A stretch of 58,887 nucleotides of DNA, counting the filler, from Asterionella formosa (taxonomy: Eukaryota): the NCBI GenBank assembly GCA_002256025.1. It is 10 parts of 10 records of this genome, joined end to end, with 100 filler letters (N's around TTAATTAATTAA, not from the genome) between each part and the next. Parts side by side here need not be neighbours in the genome. Positions count along the whole stretch, not along the records: positions 1 to 5,816 come from NKIB01012915.1; 9 more parts are not named here. The stretch is one strand, 5' to 3'. Position 1 is the stretch's first letter. Each line of letters starts with the position of its first letter. Made by a program: the position numbers and the translations under genes. The notes below the pieces were generated by a model, which was given only the letters and a program-made list of their open reading frames with translations, was not told where the DNA came from and made no database searches. Below, piece after piece: positions 152-18,724 of the stretch.

Positions 152-428
152 TGTTGGAGAAATTATTTTAGGAAAGAAAAATCCCGGCATGAATTGCCTA
201 CTACATATTGAATCGAATGAATCAAAAACGAATATGGTACCAGAGAAAACTCGGAATTAGAAAACAATCTACTTCACCAGTAAAACCTATAATTCTACTA
301 AAACTCTTAAGAACGATTACAATCAATTACTGCAACATTGTTGTTCATATCTACAGCCCATTTGGTCCCTGACATGTCCTTACAGGATACAAGAAAGCAA
401 TAGAGGGCTTCGGGACGCAATTTCAAAA
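152..428 (+). repeat. 5' LTR
   Basis: Begins TGTTGG. By manual alignment it is about 93% identical to 4870-5149. The terminal CA is mutated to AA. Confidence 0.95.
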
Positions 429-564
429 GTTTCAGTAGAATTAGCCGGCCAGGAAGAGCTGCTGTAATATTACAATCAACAACAGGTGGACTGTTGAGAG
501 TGCGGAGACAAGATCTGAGGGTACCAGACCATCCAGAGTCTGAAGAAGTCGCACAAGGCGCATC

Positions 565-3500
565 ATGAGTGGCAAAGGAAAGTTTTCCAAGAAGGCTCAG
601 GCCAAGGGCAAGTTTCAAGCCAAGGGAGGGAGCAATATTGCTTCTCAAACCATCAAAAAGTCAGTTAATGACTATAACTACTACCTAACAGCAAAGCAGG
701 CATCTGATTATGAGACTACTACTGAGTACCTCATCAACTACATCAATAAAGTGTTTGACTATGGCAGTGACATAGGAATGGTGCTAAAGTTGGTAGAACA
801 ATTTATCACATCAGCATGGAAGCCAAGAATGCAAGTGAGCATTGCAACAACTTAAGAAGATCGTGCTGCAGAGAATCGGCAATATGAGATCAAGTTTAAG
901 GCAGATGATGACACCTACTACAGTAAAAAGGGTACAGGCCTACGAAAACAACAATACCAAGGCATATGCGTTGCTCTGGGAAAGATGCAACAAAGCCATG
1001 AAGAACAAGATCAAAGCAAGATCCAATTACAATTGGATCGAAAATAACCCAATACCATTGCTTATGGCAATTAAAGAACACGCATTGAATTTTCAAGAGA
1101 ATCGATATTCAATGCCAATTATTTTAGATGCAATGAGAACGCTTTTACATACAAAGCAAAAAAGGAGAAAGTCTACAAGACTACACCAAGAGGTTTCGGG
1201 TGGCATGAGATGTGCTCAAGTCACACATTGGAGGACCCATTATACTCACCAAGTTTGGTGAAGCCATGAAAAGGTAGAACAAGACAGTCATCAAGCTACG
1301 AGATAAATTTCGCAAACAAGCTTTCAGTCAATTTATGGCCTATTTATACCTCAACAATGCTGATAAGGCCAAACATGGATCAATTATGACCGGGCTGAAC
1401 ACTCAACAGTCACTCAGCAATTATCAATACCCAAAGAGTATCACCAAATCCAATAATGTTCTCAGTAACCACAGGTTCGACATAACAAATAAGCGCAACA
1501 GTCACAAGAAACCAGGAGATCACAATAAAGACAGGGAACAAAAGGATGCAGAGAAGGATGATGAAGATGTGAACTTATCGTTTGCACAGTTAGAAGGAAA
1601 ATGTTACTGCTGTGGAAGAGCCGGACATAAATCACCAACATGTCGCGATAAGAATAAACCCAAAGAGGAATGGGCGATCAACAAGGCCCAACAAAGCCAT
1701 GCACAGGCACAGGCTGCTACATTGGACACAAGTACGGTTATCTCTGTTAATTCCAACAACCCACCGTCATCACAAGCTTCACAACAAGCAAATGTCAATC
1801 AAGTTGGATGGGCGGGAGCTCATGTCAAACTGCAATTTTACCAAGCATCCGAGATGCGTGACTGGATACTATTGGATAATCAATCAAGTGTCACAGTCTT
1901 TTGCAATCCAAAAATGGTTGAAAACAATTAAATGTCAACCAATGGAAGCATGCACCTGGCCACAAATGGTGGATCCATGGTCACTATTATGAAGGCTGAT
2001 CTTCCACAATGGGAAGAAGTATGGTTTAATGAGAAGGCAATCACAAACATCTTCAGTTATGCCGAAATGGCAGATAGGTACAGGACTACGTATGATTATG
2101 AAAAAGACGATGCATTCATTGTTCATTTGCCTGACAAACCAGTTCGATTCGAAAGAATTGGGATGAACTTAGATGTTTTCGAGACTCCTACAACAATTAA
2201 GGCGGAGAATGGTGATCTAATGTTAAATACAGTTGAAGAAAACAAAACACTCTACACTGAACATCAATTTGAGAGAGCCAAGCGAGCTTGTAATCTATCT
2301 CATGCCTTGGGCACACCATCAATTAATGATTTCAAGGCTTTAATTCTTATGAATACGATCAACAATAATCCAGTGACTACCGATGATATCAAAATTGCAG
2401 AGAAAATTTTTGGACCTGACACTGGGACATTAAAAGGCAAGACAACTTGTTGCAAGCCACTGCCAGTCGTGAATGACTACATCGAGATTCCTAAAGAGCT
2501 TATCAGAGCTCAACGCAAAGTGACTCTTTGCATGGATGGATTGAAAGTGAATGGACAATCATTTCTTACAACAATTTCTCGAACATTATGTATAAGACAG
2601 CGCAATGGGTCAAGAATCAGACAGCAGATGTCTATCGAGATTCTTTGACTCAGGTATTCCATATTTACAATACCAGAGGATTTAAAATTACAACAATCCA
2701 CTGTGACAACGAGTTTCGACCTTTGATGGAACAAATTTCCAATAAATTCCAAGTCACTATGAACTACGCAAACCCACAAGAACATGTTCCTGAAGCGGAA
2801 CGAAATAATCGAGTGATTAAAGAACGCGTACGCGCAGCTTATCATCGATTATCTTTCAAACATTTGCCACGACTTATGATCAAGATTCTAGTCACAGAAT
2901 CTGCAAAGAAACTGAATTTCTTTCCGTCAATAACGGGATATCCCCATATTACAGTCCTTGTATGATTTTACATCAACGAAACCTGGACTATGCTCGACAT
3001 TGCCAGTATACATTTGGCACTTATGTCCAAGCACATGAAGAACCGGTGTTCTCAAACAATAATGCACCACACAGCCTAGATTGCATTTATCTACGCTACA
3101 ATGACAACAAGCAAGGAGGTAATGAATTATTACACCTACCTACAAATTCATTGATCACTAGACAAACAGTTACTCCTCTACCACTTACCCCAGCAATCAT
3201 AAATCAAGTACATGCGCTTGCTGTGCAGGAAAATACGCCAGACGATCTCAAGATATCTAATCAAAAGGAACAACTATTTTATGATAGTGCTTGGATTGCA
3301 GGAGTGGATTATGATAATGAAGCATTTGAAGATGCACAAGATGAAGATTATGAAGATCAAGACGCTAGTGACAACGAAAGCAATGATGAAATTCTCAGAG
3401 AAGAAGACTATGATGAAATGAATCCAGATGAAATGTATGAAGCAATACAGCTTGAATTAAACAACAAGATCCAAGAGGATGACCCTGAACCTGACGAGGG

Positions 3501-4847
3501 CAACAATGAGAATAATATTGAAATAAATGCAGATGAAATCTAAGATGAGGATGAAGAACTGGCAAATGAAACTGAAAATGAAGAGGCAATGTTAGAAGTC
3601 AATCCAAGCACCACTGAGGATGACTCAGACCCAAATGTTAGAACTACAAGGTCTGGAAGAGTCTCAAGACCACCATCAAAACTTACTATGGTCCAAAATC
3701 ATTTGCATACCCAAGCACACTGTCGAGAAGAATACACGACTGATAATGCGAAAGTGATCGCAATGACAATGTGTTATATGAATGAGATGTTTATCGATAA
3801 AGAAGCATTCCACTTTGTTCAGTCATACAGCTTAAGAAAAGTCCTCAAGAAATTTGGCCAGAATGGAAGAGACGCTGCGTATAAAGAAATGAAACAACTA
3901 CATGATAGAGTTGTATTTGAACCGACTAGGATTGAAGACCTAACAGAGATCGAAAAGCCACGCGCAATGGAAAGTCAAATGTTTTTGGTTGAAAAAAGAG
4001 AGAAGAGTATTAAAGGCAGAGCTTGTGCCAATGGCAGTTCGCAACGTGAATGAATGGAAAGCGATGAAGCAGCTAGTCCTACTAGTACTACCATGACGGA
4101 ATCTTTCATGATAACAGCAAAAATTGATGCAAAGCAAATCGTGATGTTATGACAGCAGATATACCCAATGCATTTGTGCAATTGGATATCGATGAGAAAG
4201 AAAAAGGGGTACGAATCATTATGAGGATTGAGTGTTCACTTGTCAATATGTTGACAGAACTCAGCCCCAAGACTTATGAAAAATATGTTGTTTATGAAGG
4301 AAACAACAACAAGGTCCTCATGAATTTCTTGAAAGCAACTCAGAATGAGGTTGCATCAATGAGTGCTGATGAAACTCAGAGCATTAAATGGTATGTTGAT
4401 GTGGCGTTTGCTGTACACAAAGATTTAAAAGTCTCTCAGGAGCTACGTTGTCACTTGGAAATGGAATTATTTGTTCTATGTCTATGAAACAGAAAGTGAA
4501 CATTAGATGTTCGACTGAAGCAGAATTGGTTGGTGTTGATGACATTGTATCAAAAGTGTTGTGGACGAAATTATTTATTGAAGCACAAGGACACAAGGTG
4601 ACTACAAATGTCATTTACCATGACAACACTAGCGCAATGAAGCTAGAAGAAAATGGAAAAGCAAGTTAGGAAAACGCACGCAACATTCCAACATCAAGTA
4701 TTTTTTTACATTACTGATCTTATTGAAAGAAAGGAAGTACAAATTAAGTACTATACAATGGATGCAATGTTAGCAGACTACATGACAAAACCACTGGTTG
4801 GAACGAAATTTATTCATTTTCGTCAGCAAATTATGAATTCAAAGTGA
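565..4847 (+). pseudogene. copia gag-pol polyprotein, with frameshifts and stops
   Basis: Motifs spread over many frames: Zn knuckle CYCCGRAGHKSPTC, protease WILLDNQSS, integrase IHCDNEF...PEAERNNRVIKER, RT N-part KGRACANG...ADIPNAFVQ, and RNase H WYVD...STEAELVGVDD...ADYMTKPL. Confidence 0.95.
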
Positions 4848-4869
4848 GCATCCGTGTCCAGCAGGAGTG

Positions 4870-5149
4870 TGTTGGAGAAATTATTTTAGGAAAGAAAAAT
4901 CCCGGTATGAATTGCCTACTACATATTGAATCGAATTAATCAAAAACGAATATGGTACCAGAGAAAACTCAGAATTCGAAAACAATCTACATCGCCAGTA
5001 AAACCCATAATTCTACAAAAACTCTTGGTAACCACGATTACAATCGATTACTGCAACATCGTTGTTCATATCTACAGCCCATTTGGTCCCTGATGTGTCC
5101 GTACAGGATACAAGAAAGCAATAGAGGGCTTCAGAATGCAATTTCAACA
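4870..5149 (+). repeat. 3' LTR
   Basis: TGTTGG...TTCAACA followed by the TSD ATTGA. Confidence 0.95.
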
Positions 5150-5816
5150 ATTGAAGGATGAGCGAATCTAAATTTAAATAAATGAGGATATGGTTTACCT
5201 ATGTAGGCTACCGGTACCGGTAATTCTTGTATGTGTACATAACAAATGCCTATATACTCCGAGGACATGGTAAACAGCTATTTTGTCCAAAAAAGGTCGA
5301 TCTGTTGACACTTTCACGTACGGTATATCGGTATGTATCGATCATACCTGTACAAATGAATGTTCAGTGTCGCTCGTATGCACATAGAGAAGCAAGCGCT
5401 ACGAGGTACCAGGTACATGCTCAGCTACAGATGGATCGTTTCAGATTTGTCAACCAAGATGTAGAGAAATTCGTTACAAAACGTGTTATTCGACGTACCG
5501 TATAGAGGTTCAAAGCAGTTTTTCGGTGGAACCAGGTACCATGACAATGACATCCCCTGATGCTTCTAGTGCCACCAATGTGAATTTTAGTTTGAATGAA
5601 AATGAAGCTCTTGCCGCTGACAACCCCGTGCCAAGGCAGAGGCGAGGATCGCCGCTTGTCGTTGTAGCTGTAAGTGCCATCCGAAATCACAGTGTTCCGT
5701 TGTGTCCAAAGCTAAATACCTCATGCCTTCCAGGTGCGATCCCAAGAGGCCGCAAATCGCTACAGTGGGAGGCTCGTCCATTACTTTCGTCAGCTCTGCT
5801 GTCGCTCGTCGTCCCA

Positions 5817-5916
5817 NNNNNNNNNNNNNNNNNNNNNNNNNNNNNNNNNNNNNNNNNNNNTTAATTAATTAANNNNNNNNNNNNNNNNNNNNNNNNNNNN
5901 NNNNNNNNNNNNNNNN
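5817..5916. other. artificial contig linker N44-TTAATTAATTAA-N44 (also at 11730-11829, 17642-17741, 23551-23650, 29456-29555, 35355-35454, 41242-41341, 47125-47224, 53007-53106)
   Basis: Identical 100-bp spacer with stops in all six frames. The flanking contigs are sorted by length. Confidence 0.99.
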
Positions 5917-6071
5917 TGATCACGTAATATAGTGATGATCAGGAATGCATGCATGATACTCTGATCAAATAATGAACGTGATGTATTCAGATAATATATA
6001 GATATATTCAAGTAAGCATTTTGATGTATTCAACTAATTCATGTGATCCATTCAAAATCAACTAGGCTTAT

Positions 6072-7256: not shown

Positions 7257-7489
7257 GGTAGTCGGAGTAGTAAGCAAGCAACAGAACACCATATGTTCAG
7301 GACTGTTGCTACTGCAGTGGGATAGTAAATCATCATATTTTTAGGATTGTATGATTGTAAAATTGAAAAAGAATACCGGTAGTCAGAGTAGTAAGCGAGC
7401 AACAGAACACCATGTGTTCATAACTGTTGCTACTGCAGCGGGACAGTAAATCATCATAGTTTCAGGATCATATGATTGTAAAATTGAAA
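7257..7489 (+). repeat. two-copy ~121-bp tandem duplication
   Basis: ggtagtc(g/a)gagtagtaagc..aacagaacaccat..actgttgctactgcag..gtaaatcatcata..tatgattgtaaaattgaaa at 7257 and 7378. Confidence 0.9.
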
Positions 7490-10400: not shown

Positions 10401-11833
10401 GAATGAACATCCATTGCTTGTCGTATTAGTTTGAGAATCGCGTTTTATAGAAATTATTAATATAAACTATATAGCAAAGCTATTACTTTGATTCATTTTG
10501 CGACTGTAGAATTAAATTGAGATGTTGATTGGTTACACATAATTATTTGTTTGACTAAAATATATATTTGATTAACCTTGAGGTATTAGTGTGATCAAAA
10601 TTAAGATTAAATGGGAGTGAACAAACAGAATTAATGGTAGTCAGAGTGAAGAATATTTGTGAACGGACATTTTGCGAATTGTAGAGAAAAGTAGCGTACT
10701 TTTGAGATTATTCCTGAACAAATTTTTCTTTGTTTCGCCAAAAAATATTGTCAGTTGGCCCAAAAAATTATGTGGGTTTCTAAAATGATTATGGAAGTTG
10801 TCAAAACCTTTTAATTCACTCCATTCATATACATTGTATGATGCATCATATTTTTTATGTGATGTCATACCCTTAAATTATGTACATAGCTAAATTTGTC
10901 ATATTGGGCCACCAAAATAATTAATTTGGGTGATCATATTTTTTGGCAGCTGTACCAGTAATCAGCATTGTAGATGTAGTTAAGAAAGCCAAAAGAAAGA
11001 AACGAGTTTGAGGAGCTGCAAAGAAATGTCAGGACCGCAATGGGATCATTGCAACCTGATAACCATGAATTCGCGAGCGCATGACAAGAAAGTGGGCACC
11101 GACTGAATATGCATAATTTCGAATGGGGTCTTTGGCTAAAGAAGACGACCTGAGTTACCGGTACCGCTCTTGCTCCAGGAATGCTCGATGACGACTACCG
11201 GTACGGACATTCGGTCGACTTACAGAAGTATGTCCGTACATATGTGGTACAGTTGGTTCGAATGGGGGCGTCTCGCAATCGAGGTACCGGTACCGGTATT
11301 AACCATCATTTGCTTTGAAAACTTTTGAACGATGATTGCTTACATACGTATATGTATGTCATATACAATATGGAGCTATTCAAATACTGCACGGTAAATC
11401 AATAACACAAACAATTGTCACCGTTGCTTCCGTTTGTTTCAGCTGCTGATGTTTCGGAGCCTTCATCACACAAGGATTTACCGGTACTTGTTCATCGATT
11501 GAAGAGAAGAGCTCTCGTATCAGCACACAGCACATCAATCGCAATGATGCAGGAATCGCAAGTGGTCCGAGGAACGGTAGGTCACCGAAATCATCTGAAT
11601 TATCGGACGCGAAGTGTTACACATAATCCATTAGCTAATACTCCCATGCAATGCTTCTTCGACGCAGTCCCCGCGCAGATCTTTCGGCACGGAGCTTACT
11701 TCCTCGGTAGTAGGAAACCGCTGCAGTCCNNNNNNNNNNNNNNNNNNNNNNNNNNNNNNNNNNNNNNNNNNNNTTAATTAATTAANNNNNNNNNNNNNNN
11801 NNNNNNNNNNNNNNNNNNNNNNNNNNNNNTTGA

Positions 11834-13741
11834 TTGAAATCTGAATTTCATCTTGCCAGAATGATTGATGGAGACGTGAACGACGACGAAGCATTGCACC
11901 ACGGAATCATCGTTCGCGAGGCCGACTTCAATAGAGAAGCCCTGAATCCCGCGTTCGGCGTGCAAGAGGTCGAAGAAGATCTCACTCAGTTGCAGCTTTA
12001 CATTGAGGAAGGACAATGGGAAGAAGCGTTGAACAGACTGATGAGTCACCCTCACGAGGTACATCACCCGAGAGCTCAACCTGGCTCCAAGGCAAGGGCC
12101 ATGACCGCGTTGCACCTTGCTCTAGAGACCGGCGAGTGTCCCCTTCCTGTCATACACGCGATACTGGCAAGGAAACCCCTAGCAGCAGCCATGAGAGACA
12201 ACCATGGAAATACTCCACTTCATATTGCGTGCGCCGGGCAGTTTTCTTATGATCACAGAGTGATTTGCTGCCTGCTAGCTGCCTACCCGCAAGCCGTACT
12301 CCTCTCGGAAGATACCGAAGGAGCAACACCGCTACATATGCTACTCACGCTAGGGGGAGATGTAAGTCTGACTTGCGTAACCCTGCTATTGGATGTAGCC
12401 TACTCAAGAATGGCCGGCCTACCACTTGCATATGTTCCTTTAGTGGATATGATTTGCAGTCCCTTGTCGATTTCAATGGAAATCGTTGCCAACTTCCCGC
12501 CGAGAATTGTACAGCTTATACGAGAGCTCGCGATAAGCGACCCCTATAACTTTCCCTCCTGTTTTCAACCGTTCTTATATCTACCTCAACCAGAAACATT
12601 GGAATGTATATCCGAACGGATGGAGAATCAAGGCGAACTTTTGATCATGACTGATTGCAAGGGACACACCCCGCTGCACACCTGTTGTTCAAGAGCACTT
12701 ATGCCCGACGTCGTCCGGGTGCTTCTAAATGAACATCGATACCCTGGTGCTCATCGGGCAAGCTTTGTCTTGGACAACAAGCAACGTTATGCGCTCTTCT
12801 ATGCTGCTTGTTATCAACTTCCATTCGAAGGTGCCAAGCTTGTGTTCGATGTCAATCCGGACGCTATTCGACACATTGAGGAATACCGGCTCCTCTACCC
12901 TCATGTTGCGTACATCTCACCAGTATACTCCCAAAAGGACCGAACATTGGAGTTAATTTCAACTCGACTTAACCCGTCCGATGATATTCGAAATTTCTTC
13001 AAAACTGAAACGATGTACAAACTCTATTGCACAATTGAATTCTATGTTCGACTAACCTATCATGGAACATACTTGGATCCTCCACCACGACATTCAAAAT
13101 GGCGTGCATTGCATGCGATTGCATCAGTTCAATCGCCGCCACAGGTCATTCGAGCCGCAATCGGACTGTATCCATGGTTGTTGCATGAACGGGATGAAGG
13201 AGAGAATCTTCCGCTGCATTTAGCCTGCAAAAATACATATGAAGAGGGGAACGATGAAATTCATTATTGGTGCCTGAAAGGAGTCAATCGGGAAAAGATT
13301 CATCACAGGATAGACCCAGAAGACTTGGAGAGAGAAAATCCAATTACCCTCTTTGCAGTCGCTGAACCCAGGGCAGCGAAGTGTTTCGACAATGACTATT
13401 GTTTGCCGCTTCATAATGCCATTTGTTCTCAGAAGGGTTTTAATGATGGAATTAAGTCGCTCATTTCTGCTGCTCCACAAACCCTGACCGTTCGAGATGG
13501 AAAACATCATCTATATCCATTTCTCCTTGCTGCGATGGACGAGGTCAATACTTTAGACACAGTTTTCGACCTTTTGCAGTCAAATCCAACTCTGGTACAA
13601 GACGGCATACAGGCTTTCACTCAGCACATGATTGACAAGGATTGTGTTTCAAATTACGATCACAAAGCATCATTGGCTGGCGAAAAAGAGTCGAACAAGC
13701 GATACAAATCAAGCGACGATGAAAATGAAAAGTCGAATTAA
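11834..13741 (+). CDS. ankyrin-repeat protein (start may lie beyond the contig edge; first ATG at 11861)
   Basis: 635-aa ORF with repeated GNTPLHIAC / GATPLHML / GHTPLHTCC / NLPLHLAC / LPLHNAI motifs and a C-terminal LYPFLLAA. Confidence 0.9.
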   Translation: MKSEFHLARMIDGDVNDDEALHHGIIVREADFNREALNPAFGVQEVEEDLTQLQLYIEEGQWEEALNRLMSHPHEVHHPRAQPGSKARAMTALHLALETGECPLPVIHAILARKPLAAAMRDNHGNTPLHIACAGQFSYDHRVICCLLAAYPQAVLLSEDTEGATPLHMLLTLGGDVSLTCVTLLLDVAYSRMAGLPLAYVPLVDMICSPLSISMEIVANFPPRIVQLIRELAISDPYNFPSCFQPFLYLPQPETLECISERMENQGELLIMTDCKGHTPLHTCCSRALMPDVVRVLLNEHRYPGAHRASFVLDNKQRYALFYAACYQLPFEGAKLVFDVNPDAIRHIEEYRLLYPHVAYISPVYSQKDRTLELISTRLNPSDDIRNFFKTETMYKLYCTIEFYVRLTYHGTYLDPPPRHSKWRALHAIASVQSPPQVIRAAIGLYPWLLHERDEGENLPLHLACKNTYEEGNDEIHYWCLKGVNREKIHHRIDPEDLERENPITLFAVAEPRAAKCFDNDYCLPLHNAICSQKGFNDGIKSLISAAPQTLTVRDGKHHLYPFLLAAMDEVNTLDTVFDLLQSNPTLVQDGIQAFTQHMIDKDCVSNYDHKASLAGEKESNKRYKSSDDENEKSN

Positions 13742-17741: not shown

Positions 17742-18724
17742 AATTGTTGGAAAGCAAAACGATATTAAATGGTTCAAAAAGGAAATCAAGAAACACTTCA
17801 CAATCAAGGAGCTTGGCCGGTTGAAGAAAGATTTGGGAGTGCGGTACAATTGGGGCCAAGATAAAGTAGGACTCTACTTGGAGTCGAGCATGGAGGATTT
17901 TGTGCAGGTTATGCTCCAAGATTATCACGATATTTTTGGAAAGTATCCAAGAGATGCATCAACCCCAGCATTGCCAGGAATTGTTCTCAAAAAGAATCCA
18001 GACAAAGTTACTCTCCATAAAAGATATTTTTCTATGGTCGGAAAATTGTTGTATTTTGTGAAGAAATTTGGACCAGTATGCGCAATTGCATGTTGGGAAC
18101 TTTCTCAACATTTAGAGAATCCAGGAGAGGCCTATTGGAATGCTGTTGAACGTTTGTTAGGTTTCATTAGAACTGATGAAAGGAACAGAAAATTATAAAT
18201 AAGACCACCACATGAATTACAAAATTCAAGACATGGTTAACAGCTTGTTTGGAGACAATCATCCAGATTCCAGGAAATCGACAAGTGCATCATACTTGGG
18301 TGCAATTGGTGGTGCATCGCTAGTGAATTGGATTTCGAAAGGACAAAAGATTGTTACTGTTTCCAGCACTGAAGCAGATTATGTGGCTTTATGAGATGGA
18401 TCAAAGGAAACTACTTTTATAATGAATCTACTTGATGAAGTTGAATACGTGGAAATGCCCAGAATCATTGCAGAAGACAATACAGGTGCAATCTTTTTAT
18501 CAAAGAATCAACAGGTTGGTTCACGAACTAAGCACAATGATGTGAGATATCATTTCATTCAAGAAGAGGTGAAGGCTGGGGATATTAGAGTTGATTATGT
18601 GAATACTTTGAATATTCCTGCAGACCTGCTCTCAAAGAATGTCGCTCAGAAAATTCATGACACTCATGCAACTCACATTATGAATGGGACTATGGATTGT
18701 TGGTTTCGAGATCAGGGAGAGTGA
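17742..18724 (+). pseudogene. copia RT C-terminus and RNase H, decayed, cut by the contig edge
   Basis: FTIKELGRLKKDLGV, MVGKLLYF, VTVSSTEADYVAL, EDNTGAIFLSKN..GSRTKHNDVRYHFI, NIPADLLSKN, with in-frame stops. Confidence 0.93.

Follow-up and report, generated by a model that had tools for sequence, protein, structure and literature searches.

Primer-binding sites complementary to their own LTRs suggest self-priming in a divergent diatom-associated clade of copia-order retrotransposons

Described systems and the diatom clade

To our knowledge, experiments have demonstrated self-priming of reverse transcription in the Tf1/sushi branch of Ty3/gypsy alone. In Tf1, the RNA's first 11 bases pair with the primer-binding site (PBS), RNase H cutting between bases 11 and 12 (PMC7175516), while the self-primed class is described as forming a three-duplex 'pretzel' around the primer-PBS helix (PMC10085805). 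An earlier note on the DNA studied here was not aware of self-priming having been described for copia elements. It has in fact been proposed for the plant elements Houba and Osr-1 and is predicted for the TAR lineage, in an account that recognises such sites by at least 10 bp of complementarity to the element's own LTR, starting 0–5 bp after the LTR (PMC6317226). Here, we describe an element in a stretch of 58,887 nucleotides of Asterionella formosa DNA (the window), together with its relatives; the window element and the relatives both carry own-LTR complementarity of at least 10 bp that starts 0–5 bp after the LTR. We consider it probable that these elements, a divergent diatom-associated clade of Ty1/copia order, prime themselves in the manner of Tf1, without a tRNA.

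The likeness to Tf1 and Tf2 of Schizosaccharomyces pombe, and to Tf1/sushi elements, lies in the LTR end CA and, if our reading is right, in a priming step for which a tRNA is not needed (PMC7175516, PMC10085805, PMC4600332). Tf1/sushi elements are Ty3/gypsy chromoviruses, characterised by the order PR-RT-RH-IN, a chromodomain and a gypsy-type RT, whereas the diatom clade has its integrase (2495–2965 in the window) before the RT (from 3544), its RT matches RVT_2, and no chromodomain was seen. The duplex of the diatom elements measures 14–16 bp (up to 19) against 11 in Tf1, and self-priming was shown by experiment in Tf1 whereas in the diatom clade it is read from sequence. Concerning the side duplexes of the 'pretzel', RNAalifold with 13 sequences, in which the loop aligns poorly, gave the central helix only, and single-sequence folds branched variably. 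The clade displays the features of Ty1/copia, namely the order gag-PR-IN-RT-RH, an RVT_2-type RT (the relatives P0002 and P0100 score above the cut-off and P0015 below it) and, in the window element, a 5-bp target-site duplication. The mark of tRNA-primed copia elements, a TGG start or a conserved tRNA half, was not found at its PBS, with 0/37 sites starting TGG and 30 distinct PBS sequences among them.

The plant TAR lineage (Houba, Osr-1) is alike in its copia order and in a PBS complementary to the element's own 5′ LTR (PMC6317226). TAR hosts are land plants, whereas the named relatives of the window element are all from diatoms and their RVT_2 matches are weak (at most 45.2 bits); from the weak scores and the diatom-only names we infer that membership of TAR is disfavoured. 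CoDi elements, the Ty1/copia-like elements of diatoms with the lineages CoDiI and CoDiII, resemble the clade by description, in their diatom hosts, copia gene order, 5-bp duplications and distance from classical copia, as well as in their TG/CA LTRs of 153–844 bp (PMC2806351). The main text of the CoDi paper contains none of the terms 'primer binding', 'tRNA' and 'priming' (PMC2806351). The fungal GalEa elements are also copia elements that have no tRNA-type PBS and a conserved structure at the PBS position, called the Conserved Hairpin Site (PMC5445492). In GalEa, however, this is a local palindrome at the LTR end, for which the authors report finding no complementary LTR segment (PMC5445492), whereas in the diatom clade the PBS is no palindrome and its partner is located within the LTR, 55–226 nt upstream. 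No published self-priming in diatom LTR or copia elements was found in a search of the literature other than subscription journals and GyDB descriptions. The diatom lineage is new and well supported, and self-priming of this kind is already known. A diatom copia clade with this signature would mean that priming independent of tRNA had either arisen or been retained in a second superfamily and in a third eukaryotic supergroup. As to its origin, we see about an even chance that a deep-branching, diatom-specific copia clade abandoned tRNA priming independently of the Tf1/sushi chromoviruses and of plant TAR elements.

The window element and its LTR-PBS complementarity

The element is flanked by a target-site duplication, ATTGA, present at 147–151 and, as the identical 5 bases directly 3′ of the 3′ LTR, at 5150–5154. 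The 5′ LTR (152–428, + strand, 277 nt) starts with TG and forms a direct repeat, 92% identical, with the 3′ LTR (4870–5149, + strand, 280 nt), which ends in CA. In the 5′ LTR this CA is mutated to AA, such that the terminus reads ...CAAAA against ...CAACA in the 3′ LTR; because the 5-bp duplication flanks the element at both sides, the 5′ LTR end is nevertheless fixed at 428. Between the LTRs resides a broken gag-pol (565–4847, + strand) in copia order, comprising gag with a CCHC finger, the integrase core HCDNEF (~2495–2965), RT (from ~3544) and an RNase H with the terminus ...ADYMTKPL. It has several frame breaks, and the residues equivalent to ~1253–1449 of the intact relative P0002, the RT core, are missing in a tblastn comparison. 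The window element, with LTRs 8% apart, is an old copy of a high-copy LTR retrotransposon, dead through its frame breaks and RT deletion. A Pfam search with eight ORF pieces of the window gave no match except a sub-threshold one to DUF5662, since the pieces are too broken and divergent. Neither a second copy of the element nor a tRNA gene was found within the window.

Directly after the 5′ LTR, the TGG with which a tRNA-type PBS starts is absent. The putative PBS at 429–443 (GTTTCAGTAGAATTA, + strand) is the reverse complement of 290–304 (TAATTCTACTAAAAC) in the LTR at 14/15 positions, the sole mismatch being A300 × C433 and the longest perfect run being 10. With an inverted-repeat search, the arms extend to 290–308 and 425–443, giving 19 nt that are 89% complementary (17/19) with 116 nt between them. 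The earlier note had reported an LTR end at 428 followed by no TGG, the 14/15 match and the 17/19 extension, and all of these are borne out by the sequence. When the LTR was shuffled by mononucleotide 20,000 times, a match of 14/15 to the actual 15-mer arose only once. When other 15-mers were compared with the 5′ LTR, 14/15 was attained by 7 of 52,574 from the window and by none of 4,405 from within the element (0/4,405).

The predicted self-primer (289–305, + strand) consists of A289 followed by 290–304, which pairs with the PBS, and T305, which pairs with the LTR-terminal A428. From the primer 3′ end to the LTR end there are 124 nt (305–428, + strand), a loop closed by the primer-PBS helix in the minimum free energy (MFE) fold. 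The part of the LTR preceding the predicted start at A289, 152–288 (+ strand), would be U3, the promoter part. The 3′ LTR contains its own copy of the CA and the self-primer segment (5006–5023, + strand; CA TAATTCTACAAAAAC T), which matches the PBS at 13/15 positions owing to the equivalent of T299A. The closest relative with a junction, L004, belongs to the same family (its protein is 99% identical to P0002) and has a perfect duplex of 16 bp; the window mismatch arises from C433, a position at which L004 carries T. This mismatch and the 13/15 of the 3′ LTR segment fit the age of a decayed old copy.

Own-LTR pairing and covariation in relatives

A protein search with a piece of the window's integrase region yielded 139 relatives, the best being 84% identical and many being full-length polyproteins of ~1600–1650 residues. 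Those with names are all from diatoms (Fragilaria crotonensis, Nitzschia inconspicua, Epithemia and Attheya). RVT_2 was the sole Pfam match in the relatives, with 44.4 bits for P0002, 45.2 bits for P0100 and 30.5 bits for P0015 (cut-off 31.6), and this weak, sole match together with the diatom-only names therefore defines a divergent copia-order clade of diatoms. Within the window, 18260–18637 weakly matches (26–32% identity) this polyprotein clade at its RNase H end and, judged by this match, is likely to be what is left of a further, more distant copia element.

By means of an alignment of 35 full-length proteins, 73 loci (39–99% identical to P0002) were taken from metagenome contigs, many of which are collapsed assemblies with a single LTR between the pol end and the PBS. 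Six loci (L006, L007, L029, L040, L045 and L046) have exact terminal overlaps of 99–127 nt or a whole-element periodicity, with a period of 5385 in L007 and 5266 in L029; this could reflect collapsed assembly, tandem arrays or circles of these elements with one LTR. In the public run in which the family is best represented, 15,788 contig pieces with at least 80% likeness aligned on window bases 1–1300, a number that is not a copy number and possibly includes contigs of other organisms. Searching metagenome contigs with a 22-mer of the LTR gave 0 matches, and the lone match of an LTR 18-mer in viral contigs (L001) was rejected, as alignment shows it to be unrelated.

In a blind scan of all loci for perfect inverted repeats (11 nt or longer, arms 60–400 nt apart), nearly all repeats of at least 13 nt were found to have their 3′ arm at an LTR end, ...CAAC(A). 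The resulting set of 37 LTR-end/PBS sites comprises 36 metagenome loci and the window. In 37/37, the 14–19 nt that follow the LTR end find their complement in the element's own LTR, 55–226 nt upstream of that end. A simple CA rule places the start of complementarity at the last LTR base or the next base in 34 of the 37 junctions, that is, at the boundary where a primer 3′ end must sit; the three outside this rule are the window, where CA is mutated to AA, L006 and L042. The perfect run is 14 nt long in 16 sites, 15 nt in 12, 16 nt in 2 and 18 nt in 5, while the imperfect sites, scored over 15 nt, are the window (14/15) and L042 (13/15). Over the 14-nt core, 35 of the 37 sites match their own LTR perfectly and two, including the window, match at 13/14. 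There are 30 distinct 14-nt PBS sequences in the set, and a TGG start is present in 0/37.

Further loci were considered outside the 37. L040 has a positive site across its collapsed-circle junction. L065, read by eye, carries its partner segment in the 3′ LTR alone, and its PBS has TGG at offset 1, yet pairs with the element's own LTR at 14/14. L043, despite its long region upstream of gag, has no recognisable LTR end and no complementarity. Four loci (L008, L010, L012 and L073) contain too little LTR for own-LTR pairing to be judged; when the ends and starts of L073 and L012 were read together, 13/15 matches were obtained inside coding sequence, and these were taken as chance and rejected.

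The pairing is specific to each element's own LTR, in that a PBS compared with the LTRs of elements with a different PBS reached 11/14 at best (1258 comparisons). A perfect inverted repeat of at least 13 nt is present in the 300 nt before gag in 26 of 33 sequences, counted among those with at least 250 nt upstream of gag (four shorter loci were left out), against a longest perfect inverted repeat of 12 nt in coding windows of the same size (n = 175). The 7 sequences that fall below 13 nt are all accounted for, L043 excepted. Two of the exceptions, L003 and L070, have longer leaders, and their sites were recovered in the blind scan.

To follow the two arms column by column, 13 of the 37 sites were aligned, chosen for their similar flanks. 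In this alignment, 95.7% of the cells are paired, compared with 34–47% when the partner is slid by 1–3 columns; 13 of 17 aligned pairs have changed on both sides, and a one-sided change occurs in 0/17. No shuffle of 500 reached the observed covariation score. From the same 13 sequences, RNAalifold predicts exactly the LTR-PBS helix and no other. In each of the 31 non-redundant elements that remain when six near-duplicates are removed, the MFE fold includes 12 or more of the 15 register pairs. Across the 30 distinct arm/PBS combinations, 418 of the 420 core pairs are Watson-Crick and 2 are mismatches, with no G·U pair. Within the window's own family, the pair C298-G435 of the window is replaced by T-A in L004, and the family contigs are split between C and T at 298, with a sub-population carrying T. 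Compared with the other 11 aligned elements, the family of the window and L004 has one extra base in both arms, which is a compensated insertion. The LTR-PBS pairing is itself shown by this covariation. The earlier note had proposed looking for co-variation between PBS and LTR segment in relatives, which proved positive (37 junctions, 30 PBS sequences and 13/17 two-sided changes); its suggestion that this copia lineage may self-prime is supported by the PBS/LTR covariation, by the 30 private PBS sequences and by the compensated pair in L004.

Predicted start site, priming model and alternatives

The complementarity also has a sharp 5′ limit. A CA is located at −16/−15 from the primer 3′ end in 28 of the 31 non-redundant elements and at −17/−16 in 2; the exception is the window, through T288, and here the 3′ LTR copy, L004 and the family majority all have C at 288. 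In contigs of run X1, T>C at 288 accounts for 503,447.5 of 510,029.4 depth. The consensus around the conserved CA is Y-C-A-Y-T, which resembles the initiator consensus YYANWYY. Since the complementarity stops at this initiator-like CA, the transcript is predicted to start at A289, within the CA at 288–289; the start near 290 put forward in the earlier note fits this CA. In the L049–L054 family (5 contigs), the pairing runs on past the 14-nt core by 4 nt (CTCA), reaching 3 nt further than the CA's A; either the start is further upstream in this family or the CA is not the start, and the model has no explanation for this extension. At the other end of the primer, the next base 3′ is usually T and pairs with the LTR-terminal A in 24 of the 37 sites; conserved CTTAG, CTAAG or CGATA comes after it. 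Summed RNA-contig depth is far higher at 309–440 than at 133–308 or from 485 onward, contig depth being a quantity that cannot rank these parts. One RNA contig, alignable from 290 onward, was considered as a transcript start and rejected, as diverged LTR sequence continues upstream of it.

Under self-priming, transcription would start in the LTR at the A of the conserved Y-C-A-Y-T motif (A289 in the window), and the first 15–16 nt of the RNA would fold back onto the 14–16 nt directly 3′ of the LTR (429–443 in the window), closing a loop of 55–226 nt that would represent the rest of R and U5. The element's RNase H would then cut the RNA at the end of the duplex (after 304 or 305 in the window), as in Tf1, and minus-strand strong-stop DNA (124 nt in the window) would result from extension of the freed 3′-OH through U5 and R. 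The model thus predicts a start at the conserved CA, a 15–16-nt primer and a 124-nt strong-stop DNA in the window family. In each cycle, a new PBS would be copied from the primer. Such recopying would keep an exact Watson-Crick register and let each family drift to a private primer sequence, and the absence of G·U pairs is in keeping with a PBS templated by the primer.

Retroviruses and Ty1 have U5-leader or long-range pairings around the PBS, and these count in favour of a reading in which the LTR-PBS pairing is a structural panhandle, serving packaging, dimerisation or positioning, while a tRNA fragment or other small RNA primes nearby. We regard this as improbable: in 34 of the 37 sites the duplex lies right against the LTR end, so there is no space for another PBS, and with 30 PBS sequences and 0/37 starting TGG no shared host RNA fits. 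Zero G·U in 420 pairs would also be unusual for a helix kept by RNA-structure selection alone, and RNAalifold found no other conserved helix or motif in the 13 sequences. Another departure from our reading retains self-priming but draws the primer from the segment as repeated in the 3′ LTR, or from a separate RNA molecule. The segment is indeed present in both LTR copies, and the L049–L054 pairing extends past the CA; against this, in 30 of 31 elements the complementarity stops a fixed distance away, at the initiator-like CA, as a primer made from the RNA 5′ end predicts, and in Tf1 the primer is the RNA 5′ end (PMC7175516, PMC10085805). A primer of such origin is accordingly a slim prospect.

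Priming by a tRNA or half-tRNA is the rule in copia elements (PMC6317226), and the PBS might on that basis bind a host tRNA or tRNA half, leaving the LTR match to chance. This is extremely improbable, as chance is excluded by the shuffles (1/20,000) and by the 0/1258 cross-element matches above 11/14, the strong covariation contradicts it, and the 30 different PBS sequences include none with a TGG start. As judged from the 37 junctions, of which 0 start TGG, a PBS for a tRNA 3′ end is excluded, and tRNA fragments are implausible because the PBS sequences are so diverse.

Should self-priming from the RNA 5′ end hold, the LTR and PBS could co-evolve freely, each family having a private primer/PBS pair because the PBS is recopied every cycle. 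These elements will be under-called by LTR-element finders whose scoring includes a tRNA-type PBS, and contigs resembling the window family are very numerous. Abundant diatom elements would then be invisible both to tRNA-based PBS annotation and to tRNA-fragment-based silencing, and we infer that defences aimed at a tRNA-type PBS could not act on them.

Other features of the elements were observed alongside the PBS. The polypurine tract (PPT) region (CCAGCAGGAGTG; 4858–4869, + strand) adjoins the start of the 3′ LTR, and the PPT/LTR junction, GGAGTG followed directly by TGTTG (4858–4874 in the window), is exact in 47 of 74 sequences (the 73 loci and the window). An internal copy of the PPT core (GCAGGAGT, often GGATTGCAGGAGT) is present in the integrase-RT linker of 45 of the 74 sequences; in the window it is GGATTGCAGGAGT at 3293–3305 (+ strand), a candidate central PPT. 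This copy is kept at the nucleotide level across elements that are ~40% identical in protein, and may be a central polypurine tract or may reflect the coding of a conserved AWIAGV motif. A semi-conserved CCG is found 3′ of the PBS in many elements (444–449 in the window), and the bases just downstream are often predicted to form a small hairpin.

Repeats with an 8-bp period at 5809–5933 and 11722–11846 were rejected as features, as they correspond to N masks recurring every ~5.9 kb. The masks are paired runs of 44 N (5817–5916, and 11730–11829 onward; 792 N in total) and are not biology. At 7257–7489, the window contains two tandem copies of a 112-nt unit, which are 90% identical and 121 nt apart.
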